A stretch of 61,735 bases of DNA, taken from Patescibacteria group bacterium. Lineage in GTDB: Bacteria; Patescibacteriota; Patescibacteriia; UBA2196. The stretch lies in the NCBI GenBank assembly GCA_036845805.1, contig DAIUDD010000001.1, positions 169,594 to 231,328 on the forward strand. Direction: 5' to 3'. The first letter of the stretch is position 1. Each line of letters opens with the position of its first letter. This document shows, piece after piece, positions 4,474-56,346 of this stretch. Position numbers and translations under genes: made by a program. Below the pieces are notes generated by a model. The model searched no databases. It had not been told where the DNA came from and saw nothing but the letters and a program-made list of their open reading frames with translations.

Positions 4474-6699
4474 ATGACCCGCGCTCAAGTAGCTTCATAT
4501 CTAAAATACGCCCTACAAGGCGTCTTATATGCATTATTAATTACACCGTTATTAATATCTTCTAAATATCTCTTTCCTTTCATCACCACCAAAACCATGT
4601 TTTTTCGTTTATTGATTGAGCTGGCTGTTTTAATCTATATTGCCCTAGCTTTAATCTCAGAAAAATATCGTCCTAAAATGACACGTCTTTCGTGGTTAAT
4701 AGTAATTTTTGGTAGTTTAATATTTCTGACTGGAATTACTGGTGTTGATTTTTATAAAAGTTTTTGGGGCACCATCGAAAGAGGGGAGGGCTTTCTCACT
4801 TTAGGACATCTCATAATTTATTTTTTGTTATTGGCTTGGACTTTTAAAGAAAAAAAGGATTGGTTATATTATCTAGTCGGCTTATCTTTGGTTGGCTTTT
4901 TTGTTAATCTCTATGGCTTGTTGCAAAGATTAAATGTGGAACATTTTTTTCTTTTTGGTAATATTATTCATTCGGGTGCGGGCCGTCTTTCTGCCACCCT
5001 AGGCAATGCCGCTTTCATGGGCGCTTTTACCTTGGCCCAATTTTTTATCTGTCTTATTCTTTTCTTACAAAAAAAAGAATGGTGGTGGCGTTTGATTTTT
5101 ATTGTCTTTGGTCTATTAGATTTTTTCATCCTTTTTCAGACCCAAACTCGTGGCGCTCTCCTAGCCCTCTTAGCAGTAACTATTATTCTCTCCATATTTT
5201 ACACCTTTAAAGGATTTGATAAAAAAAGAAAAATCATCGGAGCTTCAATTTTAATTTTTGTTATTTTAGTGACTAGTTTTATTCTTTTAAATCGGGGCAG
5301 TAACTGGGTAAAAAACAACAGTACTTTAAATCGCTTGGTTAATATTTCAGCCAAAGATATCACCACCGAATCGCGCCTATTAGCTTGGGATACTTCCTGG
5401 AAGGGTTGGAAAGATCGTTTTTTATTCGGTTATGGCTGGGAAAACTATAACGTTGCTTTTAATAAATATTTTCACGCCGAAATTTTTAAAGATTCTGGCT
5501 CACAGCTCTGGTTTGATCGCGCTCACAATACTATTTTTGATATTGCGGTAGCCACCGGAATTTTTGGCTTAATTTCCTATCTTTCTATTTTTGGCTTGGC
5601 TTTATATCTACTATTAAAAAACAAAAATAAGGATTTTGATTTGTACTTATTATTTGCTGGATTATTATTGGCTCATTTTTTACAAAATATCTTTGTCTTT
5701 GATGTCTTATCAACATATATTATTCTTTTTTCAATATTTGCTATTGTTTCCTTTTTAACAGAACAACAAACCACCTTAATCAAGACTCCTAATCGAACTA
5801 TTAAAAATTTTAACTGGATTATTTTTTTGATTGCCACTATTTTAATTATTAGTGCGGCTTATGTCTTTAATTTCAAACCCATGAAAGCTAATGCTCTTGG
5901 TATTAAAGCCATGATTGCCAATAATTCTGGACAATTTAACAAGGCTATTGAAATATTTAATCAAGCTATTGCACTTGGCACCTATCAAACCATGGAAATT
6001 CGCCAAAAAATGGCCGATAATACCGTTGTTTATGCCAAGCCCCAAAACATGTCACAAAGCGATATGTTTAATAACTTGCAAGCCGCTGCTACTCAAATAA
6101 AAAATAATATCACCGAACACCCGTCAGACGTACAAAATTATCTTTATTTAATGGTTATTAATAATCGTTTGGGTCTGTTTGATCGTAAATTTTACGATGA
6201 AGTTATCGCCCTTGGTGATAAAGCATTAGCTCTTTCCCCAACTCGCCCCCAAATTTATTTCGAAATAGGTCAGGCCAAAATAAGTTTGGGTTTATATCAA
6301 GATGGCATTGATTATTTTAAAAACGCCCTTGCTCAATATCCTGATGCTGTTGAATCACATTGGAATCTAATGGCCGCCTATATTATTGCCAAACAAAATA
6401 AATTAGCAGAAGAAGAATATAATTATTTAGTATCTCGTAATTATAACTTTAACAATGCCGATACTCTAAATCGTCTGATTAATACTTACCTCATGGGTAA
6501 TGACAAGGAAAAAATCGCAGCTATCTTAGAAAAATTAGTAATTATAGAACCAACTGGTTCTAATTATGCTCGTCTAGCTGCTGCTTATCGTGATTTAGGT
6601 AAAAAAGACTTGGCTCGTCAAGCTGTTAAAAAAGCAGTTGAATTAGAACCATCGCTGCAAACTGAAGCTCAAAAATTTCTTGAGCTTTTAAATCAATAA
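4474..6699 (+). CDS. O-antigen-ligase-like (Wzy_C) membrane protein with C-terminal TPRs
   Basis: TQTRGA, RLLAW, GYGWENY, RAHN motifs followed by TPR-like helices. Confidence 0.8.
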   Translation: MTRAQVASYLKYALQGVLYALLITPLLISSKYLFPFITTKTMFFRLLIELAVLIYIALALISEKYRPKMTRLSWLIVIFGSLIFLTGITGVDFYKSFWGTIERGEGFLTLGHLIIYFLLLAWTFKEKKDWLYYLVGLSLVGFFVNLYGLLQRLNVEHFFLFGNIIHSGAGRLSATLGNAAFMGAFTLAQFFICLILFLQKKEWWWRLIFIVFGLLDFFILFQTQTRGALLALLAVTIILSIFYTFKGFDKKRKIIGASILIFVILVTSFILLNRGSNWVKNNSTLNRLVNISAKDITTESRLLAWDTSWKGWKDRFLFGYGWENYNVAFNKYFHAEIFKDSGSQLWFDRAHNTIFDIAVATGIFGLISYLSIFGLALYLLLKNKNKDFDLYLLFAGLLLAHFLQNIFVFDVLSTYIILFSIFAIVSFLTEQQTTLIKTPNRTIKNFNWIIFLIATILIISAAYVFNFKPMKANALGIKAMIANNSGQFNKAIEIFNQAIALGTYQTMEIRQKMADNTVVYAKPQNMSQSDMFNNLQAAATQIKNNITEHPSDVQNYLYLMVINNRLGLFDRKFYDEVIALGDKALALSPTRPQIYFEIGQAKISLGLYQDGIDYFKNALAQYPDAVESHWNLMAAYIIAKQNKLAEEEYNYLVSRNYNFNNADTLNRLINTYLMGNDKEKIAAILEKLVIIEPTGSNYARLAAAYRDLGKKDLARQAVKKAVELEPSLQTEAQKFLELLNQ

Positions 6700-6706
6700 A
6701 ATTTTT

Positions 6707-8917
6707 ATGTTTAAAAAAAAGCTTTTTATACTAATTATTATCTCGCTTATAAATTTAATTATTTATCCGCCTTTTTTAATTTTTTCTCCAGTTGAAGCGG
6801 CCCCTCTTTCTGTTTCTGCCCCCCATCGCCCCGGTGAGTTATTAGTTAAACTAAAAAATAGTTCTGAAATATATAAATTTAAATTTTCCTCAGAACAAGA
6901 ATTAAATGATATAATCAACCTCTATCAAAAAAATAAAGATGTCGAATTTGTCGAACCAAACTATCTTTATCAAACCTCTCTAATACCTAGTGATATTCTT
7001 TTTGATAGCCAGGATTATTTATTAACAATTAAAGCACATCATGCATGGAATTTATATACTGGTAATAATCGAGTTATTATTGCTTTTTTAGATTCTGGTG
7101 TTGACATTAATCACCCAGATTTAAAAAATAATCTCTGGGTTAATAATAAAGAAATACCTTACAATGGCATTGATGATGATGAAAACGGCTACACTGATGA
7201 CATTAATGGTTGGGATTTTACTCTAAATTCTTCTGATCCGCGCCCCAAATTAATTGTTCCTTTTTCTGAAACCGGCATTAAACATGGCACGGTAATTGCT
7301 GGCGTAGCCACCGCCGAAGGTAACAATAAAGAAGGTATTTCCGGCATCACTTGGCGTAGCCAAATTATGTCCTTGCGTGTGCTCGATGGCACTGGTACTG
7401 GCGACACCCAAACAGTAGCTAAAGCCATTGATTATGCTCGTTTGCAAGACGCCCAAATTATCAACCTCAGTTTTGTGGGTGAGGGTTATAGCCAAATTTT
7501 AGAAACTGCTATTAAAAAAGCCAACGAAGCCGGCATCTTAGTGGTTGCGGCTGTTGGCAATGAAGTTCATGATGGAGTCAATATGGATACCAATCCTCGA
7601 TACCCCGCTTGTCACAACGGTCCAAATGGAGAAAATTGGGTTATCGGTGTTGCCTCTGTTGATAAAAATAAACAAAAAGCCAGCTTTTCTAATTACGGCG
7701 CCAAATGTGTTGATATCTCTGCTCCGGGCGTTTCCATTATTAGCTCTGTTTATCACGATGAATTAAATACTGATTTTTCTGATTATTATGAAAGCGGCTG
7801 GACCGGAACCTCGGTCTCTGCACCTCAAATAACTGGCGCCGCTGCCCTTATTAAATCACTCAAACCCAACCTTTCCCTTAAGCAGCTTAAAAATATTATT
7901 ATTAATAGTGCTGATAACATCGATGCTCTAAATCCTGTTTTTGCCAAACAATTAGGTACTGGCTTATTAAATGTCTATCAAGCCATCTCTTTGGCAATTG
8001 ATGAAATTGAACGACCGGACATTGAAGTGCAAAAAATTATTAGCTCACCCATAAAAAACGGCGGTCCTCACGTGCGTATTTTTAAAAAAACACAACTAGA
8101 ACAACAATTTTTTGCTCACGATGAAAAATTTCGCGGCGGCGTTTCAGTAACCGGCGGCGATATTAATGGTGATGGCCAAAAAGAAATTATAGCTGCTCTC
8201 GGAAGTGGTACTTATCCTTGGATAAAAATATTTCAGGAAGATGGCACTCTTAAAGACAAAATTATTGCTTTTGATGAAAAATTTCGCGGCGGCGTTGAGG
8301 TCGCTTTGGGTCATCTAGACGATAAACCTGGATTTGAAATCATTGCCGTGCCACAAAGTAACGGCGGCCCACACATCAGAATTTTTAATGGCCAAGGCCA
8401 GCTTATTACTCAATTTTTTGCTTTTGATAAAAAAGAACGCACCGGTTTAAATGTCGCCACTGGTGATATTAATGCTGATGGTTTGGATGAAATTATTGTT
8501 GCTCGCAAATCAGGCCTTTCAGAAGTTAAAATTTTTAATCTAAATGGCCAGCTTATTAACACTTTTAAAATTGATCAAAAAAAGCGCCTTACAAATTTTA
8601 ATCTTGCCACCGGGGATATTAATGCCGATAATCAAACAGAAATAATTTTTAGTTCTTTAAATAATTCACAAATTAAAATTTTTACCTCTCAAGGCCAGCC
8701 CCTCTTAGAATTTTATCCCAATGGTAAATGGGGTGGGGGAGTTACGGTCAGTACCGGAGATATCGACGGGGACGGTGCGGTTGAAATTATCACTGGCAAC
8801 AATTCTGGCGGAGAACCATTAGTTAAAACCTTTAACACCTTAGGTCAACTAAAAAATCAATTCTATGCCTATGATAAAAAATTTCGCGGTGGTGTTAATG
8901 TAGAAATAATTAAATAA
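6707..8917 (+). CDS. Secreted subtilisin-like S8 peptidase with C-terminal FG-GAP-like repeats
   Basis: Catalytic DSGVD, HGTVIAG, GTSVSAP; repeated GDINxDG.EII and FRGGV units. Confidence 0.9.
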   Translation: MFKKKLFILIIISLINLIIYPPFLIFSPVEAAPLSVSAPHRPGELLVKLKNSSEIYKFKFSSEQELNDIINLYQKNKDVEFVEPNYLYQTSLIPSDILFDSQDYLLTIKAHHAWNLYTGNNRVIIAFLDSGVDINHPDLKNNLWVNNKEIPYNGIDDDENGYTDDINGWDFTLNSSDPRPKLIVPFSETGIKHGTVIAGVATAEGNNKEGISGITWRSQIMSLRVLDGTGTGDTQTVAKAIDYARLQDAQIINLSFVGEGYSQILETAIKKANEAGILVVAAVGNEVHDGVNMDTNPRYPACHNGPNGENWVIGVASVDKNKQKASFSNYGAKCVDISAPGVSIISSVYHDELNTDFSDYYESGWTGTSVSAPQITGAAALIKSLKPNLSLKQLKNIIINSADNIDALNPVFAKQLGTGLLNVYQAISLAIDEIERPDIEVQKIISSPIKNGGPHVRIFKKTQLEQQFFAHDEKFRGGVSVTGGDINGDGQKEIIAALGSGTYPWIKIFQEDGTLKDKIIAFDEKFRGGVEVALGHLDDKPGFEIIAVPQSNGGPHIRIFNGQGQLITQFFAFDKKERTGLNVATGDINADGLDEIIVARKSGLSEVKIFNLNGQLINTFKIDQKKRLTNFNLATGDINADNQTEIIFSSLNNSQIKIFTSQGQPLLEFYPNGKWGGGVTVSTGDIDGDGAVEIITGNNSGGEPLVKTFNTLGQLKNQFYAYDKKFRGGVNVEIIK

Positions 8918-37669: not shown

Positions 37670-37809
37670 AAAATAATTACTTTGTCATGCTGATCCCGCA
37701 GTCGCGGGATCAGCATCTCTCTACCACAAGATTAACCGGTGTCTTGAGATCCCCAAACACCTGCCCGCAACGCTCTCGCTTGCAAGGCGAGCGGAAATTC
37801 GGGATGACA
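37633..37809. repeat. Cluster of TGTCAT...ATGACA REP-like palindromic elements with a nested hairpin
   Basis: Left arms at 37633 and 37683; right arm 37746-37809 with an insert at 37759-37794. Confidence 0.75.
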
Positions 37810-37828
37810 AAATTAAAATAATAATCTT

Positions 37829-48513: not shown

Positions 48514-48588
48514 GCGGGTATCGTATAATGGCTATTATGTATCCTTCCCAAGGATAAAATACGGGTCCGATTCCCGTTACCCGCTCCA
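48514..48588 (+). tRNA. tRNA-Gly(CCC)
   Basis: GCGGGTA/TACCCGC acceptor, TATCC-TTCCCAA-GGATA arm, encoded CCA; T-loop TCCGATT is non-canonical. Confidence 0.9.
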
Positions 48589-48611: not shown

Positions 48612-48923
48612 ATGTTAAATTCTAAATTTATTATGCGTGGTCTTATGCACAGTCTCTTAGTGATTCTATACATTGCCCTAGTTGCCTGTATTATGTCTAA
48701 TGCTGAACACTGGTTTGGCCAAATGAATGGCGCCATTGGTGCTTCTGCATTTTTACTTTTATTTGTCTTATCTGCTACCATTGTTGGTAGTTTGGTTTTA
48801 GGTAAGCCACTTTTACTTTATCTTGAAAATGAAAAGAAAAATGCTTTGACTTTGTTTTTTTATACTGTCACTTGGCTTTTTGTCTGGTTGATATTATATT
48901 TTATAATCCTGGCAATTATATAA
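48612..48923 (+). CDS. Small three-TM hypothetical protein
   Basis: 103 aa hydrophobic ORF, LLLFVLSATIVGSLVLGKP. Confidence 0.75.
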   Translation: MLNSKFIMRGLMHSLLVILYIALVACIMSNAEHWFGQMNGAIGASAFLLLFVLSATIVGSLVLGKPLLLYLENEKKNALTLFFYTVTWLFVWLILYFIILAII

Positions 48924-48930
48924 TTTAACC

Positions 48931-49199
48931 GCCACCTTAGCTCCGCCGCATTTTGCGGGGCAAGCAACTGGCCCGCCCGCAACGCCTCGCAAGCTCGGCT
49001 TGCGTGGCAGGCGAGTAGCCTCTGGCCCTACGGGCCATATGCTAGGGAGGGAGCAACGGTATCGCCCGCCTGCCAAAGCCATCTTAGCTCAGCTGGTAGA
49101 GCAACGCATTCGTAACGCGTAGGTCGTCGGTTCAAATCCGACAGATGGCTCTGGCGGGCAGGTAAACCAAGGTTCCCGGTTCAAGCCCGGGAGGTGGCT
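48931..49199 (+). pseudogene. Split outer tRNA-Thr enclosing hairpins and a complete tRNA
   Basis: GCCACCT/AGGTGGC acceptor, GCTC/GAGC D stem, CCCGG-TTCAAGC-CCGGG T arm; inserts 48944-49050 and 49065-49162. Confidence 0.7.
49078..49150 (+). tRNA. tRNA-Thr(CGT), intact, nested
   Basis: Full cloverleaf; ACGCA-TTCGTAA-CGCGT anticodon arm; GTCGG-TTCAAAT-CCGAC T arm. Confidence 0.93.
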
Positions 49200-49230
49200 T
49201 TTATAAAAAATAAAAAATCATAAAACTTTT

Positions 49231-50175: not shown

Positions 50176-50229
50176 TTTCTGGTTGCTTCAGCAACCATCC
50201 CGCCGTGGCGGGATGAAAGCAGAGCTTTC
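50176..50229. repeat. 54-nt twin-hairpin element, copy 1
   Basis: GGTTGC-TTCA-GCAACC plus CATCCCGCC-GT-GGCGGGATG; second copy at 51952. Confidence 0.8.
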
Positions 50230-51951: not shown

Positions 51952-52005
51952 TTTCTGGTTGCTTTAGCAACCATCCCGCTATAGCGGGATGAAAACAGGG
52001 CTTTC
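51952..52005. repeat. 54-nt twin-hairpin element, copy 2
   Basis: Direct copy of 50176-50229 with a compensatory stem change. Confidence 0.8.
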
Positions 52006-55876: not shown

Positions 55877-56163
55877 CGGGGTGTCGTATACCGGTAGTAC
55901 GCGTCCATGGGGGTTGAAGCGATTAGCTTCAACGGGCGAGGAGGTTTGCCTGTGGCAAACCACCACAAGCCCAGGCTTTTATTTTTTATTTCGGGCTATA
56001 GCGCAGTTGGCTAGCGCGCATGCATGGGGTGCATGAGGTCGGCAGTTCAAATCTGCCTAGCCCGAAAGAAAAAATAAAAGATGTAGACGGGGTTCACCCT
56101 GCACCATAAAGGTGCATGGTAGCCCTAAACCTTTATGGTTTAGGACAATTCACCGCACCCCGA
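55877..56163 (+). pseudogene. Split outer tRNA-Pro enclosing hairpins and a complete tRNA
   Basis: CGGGGTG/CACCCCG acceptor, GTAT/GTAC D stem, CGTCC-ATGGGG; inserts in anticodon and T loops. Confidence 0.7.
55992..56065 (+). tRNA. tRNA-Pro(GGG), intact, nested
   Basis: Full cloverleaf; CATGC-ATGGGGT-GCATG arm; GGCAG-TTCAAAT-CTGCC T arm. Confidence 0.93.
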
Positions 56164-56179
56164 TAAAAGTGTAGAATGA

Positions 56180-56346
56180 GGGTGCATGAGGGTTTAAAAG
56201 ACACACTGTGTCTTTTAAACCAGTTCAAATCCGGCTACCCCGATAATTAAGACATTAAAATTATAGATCGGGTTCACCTTGCACCATAAAGGTGCAAGGT
56301 AGTCCTAAACCTTTATGGTTTAGGGCAATTCCCCGCACCCCGACCA
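56180..56346 (+). repeat. Two further tRNA-Pro 3'-half fragments with hairpin inserts
   Basis: TTCAAATCCGGCTACCCCGA ending 56243; near copy of 56084-56163 at 56264-56346 ending ACCA. Confidence 0.7.

Follow-up and report, generated by a model that had tools for sequence, protein, structure and literature searches.

A complete tRNA-Thr(CGU) gene nested in the anticodon loop of a split tRNA-Thr(CGU) gene in a Patescibacteria bacterium: an apparent case of tRNA gene replacement

Organization of the locus

The stretch of Patescibacteria group bacterium DNA analysed here (61,735 nucleotides, hereafter the window) carries at positions 48931-49199 a complete tRNA-Thr(CGU) gene nested in the anticodon loop of a second, split tRNA-Thr(CGU) gene, between anticodon positions 35 and 36 of the latter. 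The following parts can be distinguished:

48931-48943, plus strand: 5' piece of the outer tRNA-Thr(CGU) (acceptor GCCACCT, then TA and the D-stem 5' strand GCTC)
48944-49050, plus strand: GC-rich D-region insert of 107 nt with three hairpins (sequence and fold)
48946-48958, 48984-49008 and 49023-49037, plus strand: stems of the D-insert hairpins (sequence and fold)
48972-49015, plus strand: complete hairpin-family copy in the D insert, which aligns with hairpins of L185, L187 and L191 that are adjacent to GIY-YIG genes or lie in relic tRNAs
49051-49064, plus strand: outer middle piece GAGCAACGGTATCG (D-stem 3' strand GAGC, A26, anticodon-stem ACGGT, loop ATCG to G35)
49065-49077, plus strand: frame 5' arm CCCGCCTGCCA (49065-49075) and an AA spacer; the arm forms an inverted repeat with 49152-49162
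49078-49150, plus strand: inner tRNA-Thr(CGU), CCA-less (ARAGORN 118.2; Rfam 67.1 bits)
49151-49162, plus strand: C spacer and frame 3' arm TGGCGGGCAGG (49152-49162), the other half of the inverted repeat (leader/trailer duplex, -23.5 kcal/mol)
49163-49199, plus strand: outer 3' half TAAACCAAGGTT CCCGG TTCAAGC CCGGG AGGTGGC T (sequence; ARAGORN on the spliced construct)

All elements listed in the initial annotation were found where it had placed them when the sequence was re-read and analysed with ARAGORN and Rfam, including an 11-bp imperfect stem around a whole 73-nt tRNA, which both programs identify as tRNA-Thr(CGU). The insert between anticodon nucleotides 35 and 36 is 98 nt long, just 25 nt of which are not tRNA, and its insertion point between ATCG and TAA is shared by the window, L001 and L182. 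The nest region has about 60% G+C in a genome of 35% G+C and folds with a z score of -5.4 against shuffles. A looser tRNA-Pro nest also lies inside the window.

The outer gene can be followed piece by piece in relatives. Its 5' piece is homologous to GCCGACTTAGCTC of the intact genes of L003, L011 and L016; the acceptor strand forms 7/7 pairs with 49192-49198, and the ARAGORN call on the spliced construct begins at 48931. Hairpin 1 of the D insert (48946-48958) is followed by GGGGCAAG. The middle piece has 13/14 identities to GAGCAATGGTATCG of the intact L003 gene, and the 3' half, which consists in order of T36 A A, a degenerate anticodon-stem strand ACCAA, a GGTT variable loop, the T arm, the AGGTGGC acceptor strand and a discriminator T, can be aligned to TAAACCATAGGTTGTCGGTTCGATTCCGACAGTCGGCT of L003, the T and acceptor stems differing by paired changes.

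Recognition of the outer gene

The inner gene is a canonical bacterial tRNA, scoring 67.1 bits with Rfam RF00005 against a gathering score of 29. The outer gene as encoded receives no ARAGORN call, intron mode (0-400 nt) included, where the inner gene alone is found, and no Rfam match at E <= 10. Rfam searches at the gathering threshold and at E <= 5-10 returned four tRNAs and nothing else: no group I intron, tmRNA, YrlA or other family. The outer gene becomes recognisable as a tRNA only after removal of its two inserts by hand. With splice boundaries chosen by enumerating 1056 combinations, removal of 48940-49040 and 49065-49162 yields an ARAGORN call of tRNA-Thr(CGU) spanning exactly 48931-49199, with an acceptor stem of 7/7, a T stem of 5/5 and an anticodon stem of 3 bp; its score of 105.4 compares with 109.6 for an intact tRNA-Gly and 118.2 for the inner gene. 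The earlier expectation that excision would give anticodon CGT with a 3-bp anticodon stem holds with these D boundaries but not with the splice originally proposed (removal of 48944-49050 and 49065-49162), which leaves no D loop and is rejected by ARAGORN.

The initial annotation had named two ways in which the arrangement might prove spurious, misassembly and outer halves that pair no better than chance, and the results go against both. The 380-nt locus is 100% identical across independent assemblies from different samples (L007 from ENA, L008 from JGI and, in part, L009 from Logan). Excision around approximately 30 isolated, non-nested tRNAs gave no junction-spanning tRNA call; these isolated genes alone form the clean control, as the wider one is partly confounded by neighbouring tRNAs. 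An intact tRNA-Thr(CGU) occupies the same syntenic position in relatives L003, L004, L011, L015 and L016. Together, the syntenic intact orthologues, the negative excision control and the identical independent assemblies exclude chance and artefact, and the nested arrangement is confirmed.

Nests in related genomes

A search of CPR genomes, as the initial annotation had proposed, revealed a recurring family of nests in related Patescibacteria, comprising 11 distinct framed nested tRNAs (Thr, Gly and Asn). About one third of the sampled lineages have a nest at the tRNA-Thr(CGU) locus. Leader/trailer duplexes of nested tRNAs range from -16 to -30 kcal/mol, while those of about 40 plain tRNAs are all -11 kcal/mol or weaker. 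The inner and outer genes of a nest always have the same anticodon. One of the nests is also polymorphic within a population: L003 has a nested tRNA-Gly where L004 has a plain one, next to the same RlpA protein and with aligned flanks that are otherwise identical, so that this one filled-versus-empty pair documents a precise insertion. Several inserts are precise and without target duplication. A fixed target sequence of the kind used by IS200/IS605 elements was considered and rejected, as the 5' and 3' flanks of 17 insertions show no consensus; the targets look structural, namely loops.

Protein-anchored contig scans gave 13 relevant loci in genomes and 8 in metagenomes, the remaining matches being unrelated RlpA-domain proteins. 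A pattern scan of metagenome DNA for the right-hand junction returned 0 matches; since the same pattern does match six known loci, the collection scanned appears to lack these contigs. A scan of viral contigs for a T loop followed by GGCGGGYAGG gave 9 matches, and those that were read lay in phage tRNA arrays or GC-rich contigs and represented a chance motif after tRNAs, none of them a nest. A literature search found no published description of such a nest.

The frame, a hairpin family and GIY-YIG genes

The Thr, Gly and Asn nests share a conserved frame sequence, which is found in empty hairpins as well. Copies in the window lie at 48972-49015, at 37760-37794 and in the frame itself (49065-75/49152-62); others are found in L018, L024, L183, L185, L187 and L191, including unrelated contexts, and the same hairpins occur in intergenic DNA. 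With multiple copies in an AT-rich genome, conserved stems, variable loops and precise insertions, they have the properties of a repetitive GC-rich hairpin family. The irregular pairs of the window frame, C.A at position 3 and T.G at position 7, are those of the L187 hairpin, which lies 14 nt downstream of a GIY-YIG gene. Such irregular pairs always fall at positions 3 and 7. The possibility that the frame is inverted relative to its cargo, raised by comparison of the window with L018, was discarded because the inner tiers of the two frames align without inversion; the better explanation for the swapped C.A and T.G pairs is that alternative transitions arose in a perfect CCCGCCCGCC stem like that of L185. 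Compensatory changes (G-C to A-T in the L183 Thr frame and, in the Gly frames, two double changes that distinguish L001 from L183) indicate that the frame is under some selection; a view of the frame as pure junk offers no explanation for them.

In L011, L185 and L191-L200, a GIY-YIG gene separates a relic tRNA from an intact one with the same anticodon. Open reading frames for such endonucleases beside the tRNA loci of relatives are:

L011, 5751-6026: GIY-YIG ORF
L185, 6941-7189: GIY-YIG ORF
L191, 1501-1749: GIY-YIG ORF
L001, 6715-6861: GIY-YIG ORF, truncated

The 82-aa protein comprises nothing but a UPF0213-type GIY-YIG domain, with no DNA-binding domain, and is at most a candidate homing endonuclease; nucleases of this size are abundant in CPR phyla and 70-78% conserved across them. 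A tblastn search at E <= 1 detected no GIY-YIG gene in the window, and none lies inside the GC-framed nests found, so the link between framed nests and the nuclease is drawn from hairpin sequence similarity and analogy.

Predicted expression of the nest and decay of the outer gene

Two putative signals, both identified by consensus scan and predicted in function, flank the nest:

48880-48907, plus strand: promoter-like site TTGTCT - 16 nt - TATAAT (10/12 matches)
49173-49203, plus strand: terminator-like site formed by the outer T arm and a T run

The first is the sole promoter-like site placed to drive the whole nest; the scan found nothing downstream of 48907, and thus no site within the outer gene ahead of the inner tRNA. 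The intact L003 gene has TTTTT directly 3'. The inner tRNA probably uses the promoter and terminator of the outer gene.

The outer gene shows several signs of decay. Its anticodon stem has 3 bp with A.A and C.A mismatches, its variable loop is one nucleotide short, and its D loop has been replaced by 101-107 nt of hairpins. In the window, neither the acceptor stem nor the T arm has lost its perfect pairing, which could reflect a recent event or a residual function, for instance as a terminator. Stages of decay vary among relatives, from the fresh L001, whose outer exons match the L003 gene save for the T loop and one acceptor base, to L182, L109 and L183, in which parts have been lost or scrambled. 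Between the orthologous tRNA-Gly nests of L001 and L003, 0/71 positions of the inner tRNA differ, against 19/146 in the remainder (Fisher p = 5e-4); these nest parts are 13% diverged against 28% in the upstream flank.

The initial annotation had proposed that the outer gene may be a relic or a processing scaffold. The first proposal agrees with the broken stem, the replaced D loop, the decay in relatives and the conservation of only the inner gene in the tRNA-Gly nest, and this comparative evidence favours a relic as the best reading of the outer gene. The second, in which the outer remnants and the frame are retained as a promoter-proximal leader, an RNase III-type processing stem, a folding clamp or a terminator, is an improbable reading that would account for several observations: the frame pairing kept through compensatory changes, the strong leader/trailer pairing specific to nested tRNAs, the terminator-like score of the outer T arm and T run together with a sole promoter-like site upstream of the outer gene, and the slower divergence of nest parts than of the upstream flank. 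However, in silico folding lends it no support, since the predicted probability of the inner cloverleaf at equilibrium is 0.88-0.89 in every construct, with or without frame and D insert. The same result gives no support, at least at equilibrium, to an insulating function whereby the frame and D hairpins would block mispairing of the outer half with the inner tRNA. Moreover, plain tRNAs in sister genomes need none of these parts, L109, L182 and L183 have lost pieces of their outer halves, and the same hairpins stand in intergenic DNA.

Lineage of the inner tRNA

The earlier view that the nest is not a simple duplication is borne out by identity: the inner gene of the window is 70% identical to the spliced outer gene and 86-88% identical to inner tRNAs of other genomes, its nearest relatives being the inner tRNA-Thr genes of L183 (88%) and L182 (86%). 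The outer gene has the type A anticodon arm of the syntenic genes of L003, L011, L016 and L018. By this identity comparison the incoming copy at the window locus is foreign and the displaced copy native, and the inner tRNA is, on sequence grounds, of a different tRNA-Thr lineage from the outer. Replacement has occurred in both directions, with type B nested in type A in the window and L182, and type A nested in type B in L018 and L109; in L001, type A is nested in type A.

These data bear on a quite unlikely alternative in which the resident gene was rearranged locally, by duplication of its halves or by self-insertion followed by divergence, with neither a mobile cassette nor a foreign tRNA. 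The order of 5' half, 5' half, 3' half and 3' half is obtainable by two tandem duplications, and the inner tRNA-Thr of L001 equals its outer gene except in the acceptor stem; the latter identity is, however, equally explicable by gene conversion between the copies. The closer relationship of the window's inner gene to inner genes elsewhere than to its own outer gene stands against such an origin, as do the reciprocal replacements (A in B and B in A) and the homology of frames across Thr, Gly and Asn nests, in distant genomes and also in tRNA-free form.

RNA splicing and other explanations

If the outer gene were instead functional and multiply interrupted, with the inserts cut from the RNA and the exons ligated at an exon-exon junction of ACGGUAUCG and UAAACC, each transcript would give two tRNA-Thr(CGU). 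Like the introns of archaeal multi-intron tRNAs, the inserts do interrupt the D and anticodon loops and, in L001, also the T loop; several are precise and lack target duplication; and the spliced outer sequence scores as a tRNA. Nanoarchaeum split tRNAs have complementary leaders, which the GC stem joining the halves may resemble by analogy. Splicing is nevertheless very unlikely. A bulge-helix-bulge, taken as two 3-nt bulges holding the splice sites with a 4-bp helix between them, is absent: the G35/C and G/T36 junctions lie on the two sides of a 4 x 3 internal loop at the base of the 11-bp helix, directly facing one another, and the exon bases before the 5' junction are unable to pair with the 3' end of the insert. 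Rfam detects no group I intron core at any threshold, and of the group I features the terminal G alone fits, the base before the junction being G or C and not U. After cleavage by RNase P and RNase Z, the halves would still carry the 11-bp frame. The degenerate outer anticodon stem, the chimeric or incomplete outer genes of relatives (the L001/L003 Gly nest, L109 and L182) and the much faster evolution of the outer parts than of the inner tRNA all point the same way. Among the mechanisms considered, a DNA-level invasion by a replacement-carrying cassette, and not RNA splicing, appears the most likely.

Assembly of a chimera from two tRNA-Thr alleles in a mixed population, which the coexistence of nested and plain alleles in related populations (L003, L004) might suggest, can be dismissed given the identical locus in contigs from different samples and pipelines, the homologous nests in many other genomes, and a frame and hairpins that belong to neither tRNA allele. 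Two further candidates were rejected. Insertion by an integrase does not fit a 98-nt insert that has no ORF, relics on both sides and ends that are inverted rather than direct repeats. Interpretation of the outer RNA as a tmRNA or tRNA-like molecule fails, as neither ARAGORN nor Rfam makes a tmRNA call and the acceptor has C3:G70, not G3:U70.

A proposed model for tRNA gene replacement

The data presented above have led us to propose that the tRNA-Thr(CGU) gene was replaced in situ, the inner gene being the working copy and the outer halves decaying, a reading to which we assign a probability of about 0.75. The proposed cassette consists of the 11-bp GC-rich inverted-repeat frame and a complete tRNA-Thr(CGU) of another lineage, and would have entered between nucleotides 35 and 36 of the resident anticodon; one hairpin of the resident D-region block is a copy from the same family as the frame. 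Transcription of the inner tRNA probably starts at the resident promoter and gives an RNA of ~290 nt that probably ends at the resident T arm and T run. Maturation of the inner tRNA would follow the usual bacterial route, with cleavage by RNase P and by a 3' endonuclease such as RNase Z and addition of CCA, and would leave the outer halves as non-functional, decaying leader and trailer.

Framed tRNA cassettes recur in this Patescibacteria clade, each at a loop or D-stem position of a tRNA gene whose anticodon it shares. Insertion into an essential single-copy tRNA gene would be lethal unless the cassette supplied a replacement, which would explain why inner and outer genes always share their anticodon. 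That the cassettes spread at the DNA level is plausible at somewhat below even odds, with the hairpin family and minimal GIY-YIG nuclease genes as candidate machinery and homologous recombination (allele exchange) possibly moving finished nests between strains. More tentatively still, the nest may be the footprint of an undescribed bacterial mobile element, a self-rescuing GC-hairpin cassette mobilised by GIY-YIG nucleases now or originally, and such elements may be a main driver of tRNA turnover and horizontal exchange in CPR bacteria.

Comparison with known systems

In fungal mitochondria, mobile GIY-YIG or LAGLIDADG ORFs make gene hybrids, as in atp6 of Allomyces macrogynus and in atp6, atp9, cox2 and nad3 of Glomus (PMC3630166). 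As at the window locus, a foreign gene copy arrives there with a mobile element and assumes the function, the native part stays as an unexpressed adjacent relic, and sequence matches point to close relatives for the native part and to distant ones for the inserted part (PMC3630166). The tRNA-Gln and tRNA-Thr(UGU) loci of L011, L185 and L191 have exactly this gene-hybrid layout with a GIY-YIG ORF. Unlike the fungal hybrids, the target here is a bacterial tRNA, a whole gene is nested with relics on both sides, the window nest contains no endonuclease ORF, and the associated nuclease is a bare 82-aa predicted GIY-YIG domain.

SegB of phage T4 is reportedly a free-standing homing endonuclease encoded in a tRNA gene cluster. 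It offers a parallel in a GIY-YIG gene among tRNA genes whose own tRNA region is favoured in inheritance by cutting of the rival allele, but it acts in phage co-infection rather than on a cellular chromosome, and involves neither a nested tRNA nor relic halves nor a hairpin frame. The topic of SegB is also treated in PMC2988022 and PMC13096335.

Integrative elements that target tRNA genes carry a replacement segment and leave fragments, for example at the Caldiarchaeum tRNA-Thr locus (PMC3293823); prokaryotic tRNA gene fragments are also discussed in 10.1101/2022.07.05.498093. Such elements likewise land in a tRNA gene, supply tRNA sequence so that function survives, and leave an orphan fragment. 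They measure kilobases, however, encode an integrase or recombinase and leave a one-sided fragment, whereas the insert described here has 98 nt and no protein, with both halves in register.

Rickettsia palindromic elements are comparable repetitive hairpin-forming elements. We know of no report of such a hairpin element with a functional gene in its loop. The RHEs of sponge mitochondria are hairpin-forming repeats of AT-rich genomes (PMC2800124). Like these RHEs, the GC clusters of yeast mitochondria and the double-hairpin elements of Allomyces, the present family consists of short GC-rich palindromes in an AT-rich genome, with conserved stems and variable loops, which form precise insertions in intergenic DNA and at times within RNA genes, stay in the transcript and are found near the boundaries of mobile ORFs. 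Unlike them, the frame holds a whole tRNA in its loop, and insertion sites are concentrated in tRNA gene loops.

Disrupted tRNA genes of archaea and red algae include multiply intron-containing, split and permuted forms (PMC4033280, PMC4390854, PMC3218864). There, too, the D, anticodon and T loops are the interrupted sites, and the halves are held together by a complementary GC-rich stem. Those genes, however, are spliced via a bulge-helix-bulge to a working tRNA, whereas here the host is a bacterium, the motif is absent and the interrupted gene looks dead.

Implications

At such loci tRNA finders report the inner gene alone and miss the relics, and the halves can be mistaken for pseudogenes or split tRNAs. 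In the nests, the disrupted archaeal tRNA genes have a bacterial counterpart without splicing, which bears on the debate over an ancient versus a mobile-element origin of interrupted tRNA genes. CPR bacteria have tiny genomes and single-copy tRNA genes. Replacement of tRNA genes by nesting recurs in related genomes, with an apparent link to GC-rich hairpins and small GIY-YIG genes, and would provide a route by which essential single-copy tRNA genes of CPR bacteria are swapped for foreign alleles with no intervening loss of function. If the link between the hairpins and GIY-YIG genes is true, the cassettes would represent a new, very small kind of selfish element, and the abundant, uncharacterised UPF0213-type GIY-YIG proteins of CPR bacteria may have found a possible role.

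The tRNA-Thr nest

The window is part of an AT-rich (35% G+C) genome of the Patescibacteria (CPR) and carries four tRNAs by ARAGORN and Rfam. Genes around the nest run in the order lepA, a bPH-like ORF, a divIC-like gene, tRNA-Gly(CCC), a 103-aa membrane ORF, the tRNA-Thr nest, an rlpA-like gene, ftsE, ftsX and tRNA-Gln.

Features of the nest
48880-48907: promoter-like site, TTGTCT-16-TATAAT
48931-49199: split outer tRNA-Thr and its contents, ~60% G+C
48944-49050: three-hairpin insert in the D region
49065-49075 / 49152-49162: imperfect 11-bp stem (the frame) enclosing the inner tRNA
49078-49150: inner tRNA-Thr(CGU), 67.1 bits

Re-reading of the sequence located every element that the initial annotation had listed for the nest at its assigned position; the splice it proposed for the outer gene leaves no D loop, and ARAGORN calls no tRNA from it. 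When 1056 combinations of excision boundaries were enumerated and scored with ARAGORN, removal of 48940-49040 and 49065-49162 yielded a tRNA-Thr(CGU) starting at 48931 and ending at 49199, with a score of 105.4 (inner gene, 118.2; neighbouring intact tRNA-Gly, 109.6). This spliced tRNA has a 7/7 acceptor stem, a 5/5 T stem, the T loop TTCAAGC, a 3-bp D stem, a 4-nt variable loop and an anticodon stem of only 3 bp, with A.A at 27:43 and C.A at 28:42. In the minimum-energy fold of the native nest (z = -5.4) the acceptor stem of the outer gene forms, as do the frame and the inner cloverleaf.

The 380 nt spanning the nest are 100% identical in independently assembled contigs from other samples (L007, ENA, SPAdes; L008, JGI; and, in part, L009, Logan). 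Excision and rescanning of ~30 isolated, non-nested tRNAs gave no junction-spanning tRNA in any, a control that is confounded where a second tRNA lies within 100 nt. Together with the fold, these results confirm the nest, which is neither chance nor artefact.

Syntenic loci from ~20 related lineages, retrieved through the rlpA-like neighbour, identify both genes. An ordinary tRNA-Thr(CGU), termed type A after its anticodon arm ATGGT/ACGGT ATCGTAA ACCAT/ACCGT, occupies the nest position in L003, L004, L011, L015 and L016. The outer pieces in the window align piecewise with it, substitutions in both the acceptor and the T stem being paired, which identifies the outer gene as a tRNA-Thr(CGU) that has been disrupted. 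In L005, L010, L019, L020 and L024 the position is taken by a type B tRNA-Thr(CGU), with the arm ACGCA TTCGTAA CGCGT, and the inner gene of the window is of this type. It is 70% identical to its own outer gene, 88% to the inner gene of L183 and 86% to that of L182; therefore it is not a local copy of the outer gene, but an intact tRNA of a different lineage.

A family of nested tRNAs

Nests in related genomes (insertion site by tRNA position or stem)
Thr, L001/L002/L013: type A within type A, extra hairpins in D and T loops; ATCG|TAA (35/36)
Gly(CCC), L001/L002/L013 and L003: nested; 35/36
Thr, L018/L106: type A within type B, opposite to the window; D stem
Thr, L109: L018 arrangement, decayed; D stem
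Thr, L182: type B within badly decayed type A; 35/36
Gly, L182: framed tRNA, outer gene mostly decayed
Thr, L183: nested; D stem
Gly, L183: nested, plus an empty second hairpin in tandem; 35/36
Asn, L024: nested; 34/35

In every nest the anticodon of the inner tRNA is that of its host. The leader/trailer duplex has an energy of -16 to -30 kcal/mol in 11 distinct nested tRNAs, while all of ~40 plain tRNAs are at -11 or weaker. The tRNA-Gly(CCC) gene is nested in L003 (3340-3556) and plain in L004 (440-515); the two share one RlpA protein, and their aligned flanks show no other difference, indicating that the two forms coexist in a population or were exchanged between close strains. Since its frames are already degenerate, the L003 nest probably arrived complete, through recombination, and did not form in place. 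The nested arrangement is thus real, recurrent and polymorphic.

Fate of the outer gene and expression of the inner gene

Relatives hold outer genes at several stages: nearly intact (L001 Thr), chimeric (L001/L003 Gly, with a D arm of the incoming type in the 5' half) and fragmentary (L109, L182, L183). In the Gly nest common to L001 and L003, the inner tRNA shows 0/71 differences versus 19/146 for D hairpin, frames and outer halves combined (Fisher p = 5e-4); 31/112 is the figure for the flank upstream. The outer parts of nests therefore decay, and this contrast, the staged decay and the stem defects of the window gene bear out the suggestion of the initial annotation that the outer gene is a relic. 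Its implication that the outer tRNA is spliced is not supported: the window nest has neither a bulge-helix-bulge motif nor a group I core (Rfam), and cuts by RNase P and RNase Z would leave the frame joined to the outer halves, precluding a spliced product.

The window tRNA-Gly(CCC), at 48514-48588, is intact with an encoded CCA after it; its orthologue in L001 and L003 is the outer, relic tRNA-Gly, so the same gene is alive here and overwritten in relatives.

A consensus scan found a sole promoter-like site, upstream of the outer gene, and the outer T arm plus TTTT gives a terminator score; a T run also directly follows the plain tRNA-Thr gene of L003. Because these signals flank the outer gene, the inner gene is most likely expressed from them, its tRNA being released from a ~290-nt transcript by ordinary tRNA-processing enzymes; CCA, which it does not encode, would be added afterwards.

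Frame and hairpin elements

The frame sequence (5' arm CC[CT]GCC[CT]GC[CA], 3' arm G[CG][GA]GGC[GA]GG) is conserved even between distant genomes and whether the nested tRNA is Thr, Gly or Asn. In the frames of the window, L001, L018, L024 and L183 Gly, positions 3 and 7 hold irregular pairs, one C.A and one T.G. Compensatory changes preserve the pairing: G-C to A-T in L183 Thr, and two double changes that distinguish the Gly frames of L001 and L183. Copies that hold no tRNA place the frame in a hairpin family; they lie in intergenic DNA (L018 4733-4762; window 37760-37794), inside the window's own D-region insert (48972-49015) and, in L183, next to a frame as a tandem copy.

Relic Gly, Gln and Thr genes carry a second, conserved hairpin type with two tiers, CCCCGTAAA - variable hairpin - ACGGGGCA(N)RG, as a precise insertion following nucleotide 12 (L001 3534-3567, 3747-3783 and 6651-6688; L003 3354-3387 and 6991-7029), with complete covariation of the inner stems (GTCAG/CTGAC, GACGG/CCGTC, TCCCGC/GCGGGA, CACTC/GAGTG). 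The first D-region hairpin of the window (48946-48964, ending GGGGCAAG) may be a reduced copy. Seventeen insertion sites compared share no fixed target sequence and cluster in tRNA loops. A protective role of frame or hairpins in the folding of the inner tRNA found no support in equilibrium folding calculations.

Other repeats in the window
37681-37811: GC-rich structured intergenic block between 13-nt inverted repeats, with no Rfam match; perfect 13-bp hairpin at 37687-37716, partial family copy (CCTGCCCGCAACGC...) at 37760-37794
50181-50229 and 51957-52005: 49-nt three-hairpin element, GGTTGCTTYAGCAACC ATCCCGC NNNN GCGGGAT GAAARCAGRGCTTTC, upstream of ftsE and of tRNA-Gln
55877-56243: second, looser nest; outer acceptor strands CGGGGTG (55877-55883) and TACCCCG (56236-56242)
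55992-56065: its intact inner tRNA-Pro(GGG)
56069-56163 and 56249-56343: ~95-nt unit, 86% identical copies, one within the tRNA-Pro nest and one just downstream

In its middle hairpin the 49-nt element is similar to the variable hairpin that the relic tRNA-Gln of L003 carries in its D insert; Rfam matches the element to a CRISPR repeat model weakly and below threshold. Around the inner tRNA-Pro, a 15-bp AT-rich leader/trailer stem replaces the GC frame (arms 55976-55998 / 56058-56080, 96% complementary). The outer tRNA-Pro is chimeric, its 5' anticodon-stem strand CGTCC being unpaired with the 3' strand GCATG, which matches the inner gene, and its T stem is broken by a perfect 15-bp hairpin (56191-56221). 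The ~95-nt units have tRNA-Pro-like ends (CGGGGT...CACCCCGA), two internal hairpins and C.A versus T.G swaps in their stems, and might represent either additional shells of relic tRNA-Pro or a small repeated RNA.

GIY-YIG nuclease genes

In relatives, a GIY-YIG ORF of 82-92 aa adjoins intact and relic tRNA-Gln genes.

tRNA-Gln loci, in order
L011: relic 5' half with hairpins, GIY-YIG (5751-6026, extending into the 5' end of the intact tRNA), intact tRNA
L001: relic 5' half, N-terminally truncated GIY-YIG (6715-6861), intact tRNA
L003: relic 5' half, 16-nt spacer, intact tRNA
L185: intact tRNA, GIY-YIG (6941-7189), relic with hairpin CCCGCCCGCATCGC...TGCGGGCGGG

This protein consists of a bare UPF0213-type GIY-YIG domain (PF01541; PDB 1zg2 and 1ywl) with >800 homologues at E <= 1e-8, the best 120 of which are 68-78% identical, those with a named source coming from several CPR phyla. 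Two homologues, picked solely for abundance, were examined for context. The first (L191-L200; L191 1501-1749) is flanked on one side by a relic tRNA-Thr(UGU) 5' half whose D loop holds a family hairpin and on the other by an intact tRNA-Thr(UGU). The second (L187-L190; L187 1501-1746) follows glyS, and 14 nt downstream of it is CCCGCCTGCATCGC...TGCGGGCAGGG, the window frame sequence including C.A at position 3 and T.G at position 7, which ties the window frame to the nuclease-associated hairpins. Hairpin family and GIY-YIG genes thus accompany relic/intact tRNA pairs at other loci. No GIY-YIG gene is present in the window or within any framed nest among those found. The loci, from intact through truncated to no ORF, look like the usual life cycle of a homing endonuclease gene.

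A model for tRNA gene replacement

These data have led us to propose a model whereby a cassette would be inserted at the DNA level by machinery comprising the hairpins and the GIY-YIG protein, perhaps a structure-specific nuclease acting at extruded loops. Because tRNAs appear single-copy in these genomes, other insertions would be lethal and only a cassette bringing the same tRNA would be tolerated, hence the strict anticodon match. Finished nests could then pass between strains by homologous recombination through the conserved tRNA halves and flanks. The closest precedents are the endonuclease-ORF 'gene hybrids' of fungal mitochondria (PMC3630166), T4 SegB within its tRNA cluster, integrative elements that target tRNA genes and leave fragments behind (PMC3293823) and GC-rich hairpin repeats in AT-rich genomes (PMC2800124). 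Full-text searches on nested, disrupted or intron-containing CPR tRNAs turned up no account of the nested arrangement, an absence from the library searched that is not proof of novelty. The nest would be a case of mobile-element-driven gene replacement, a known process, acting here on bacterial tRNA genes; the new part is the distinctive nested architecture that this replacement would leave behind.
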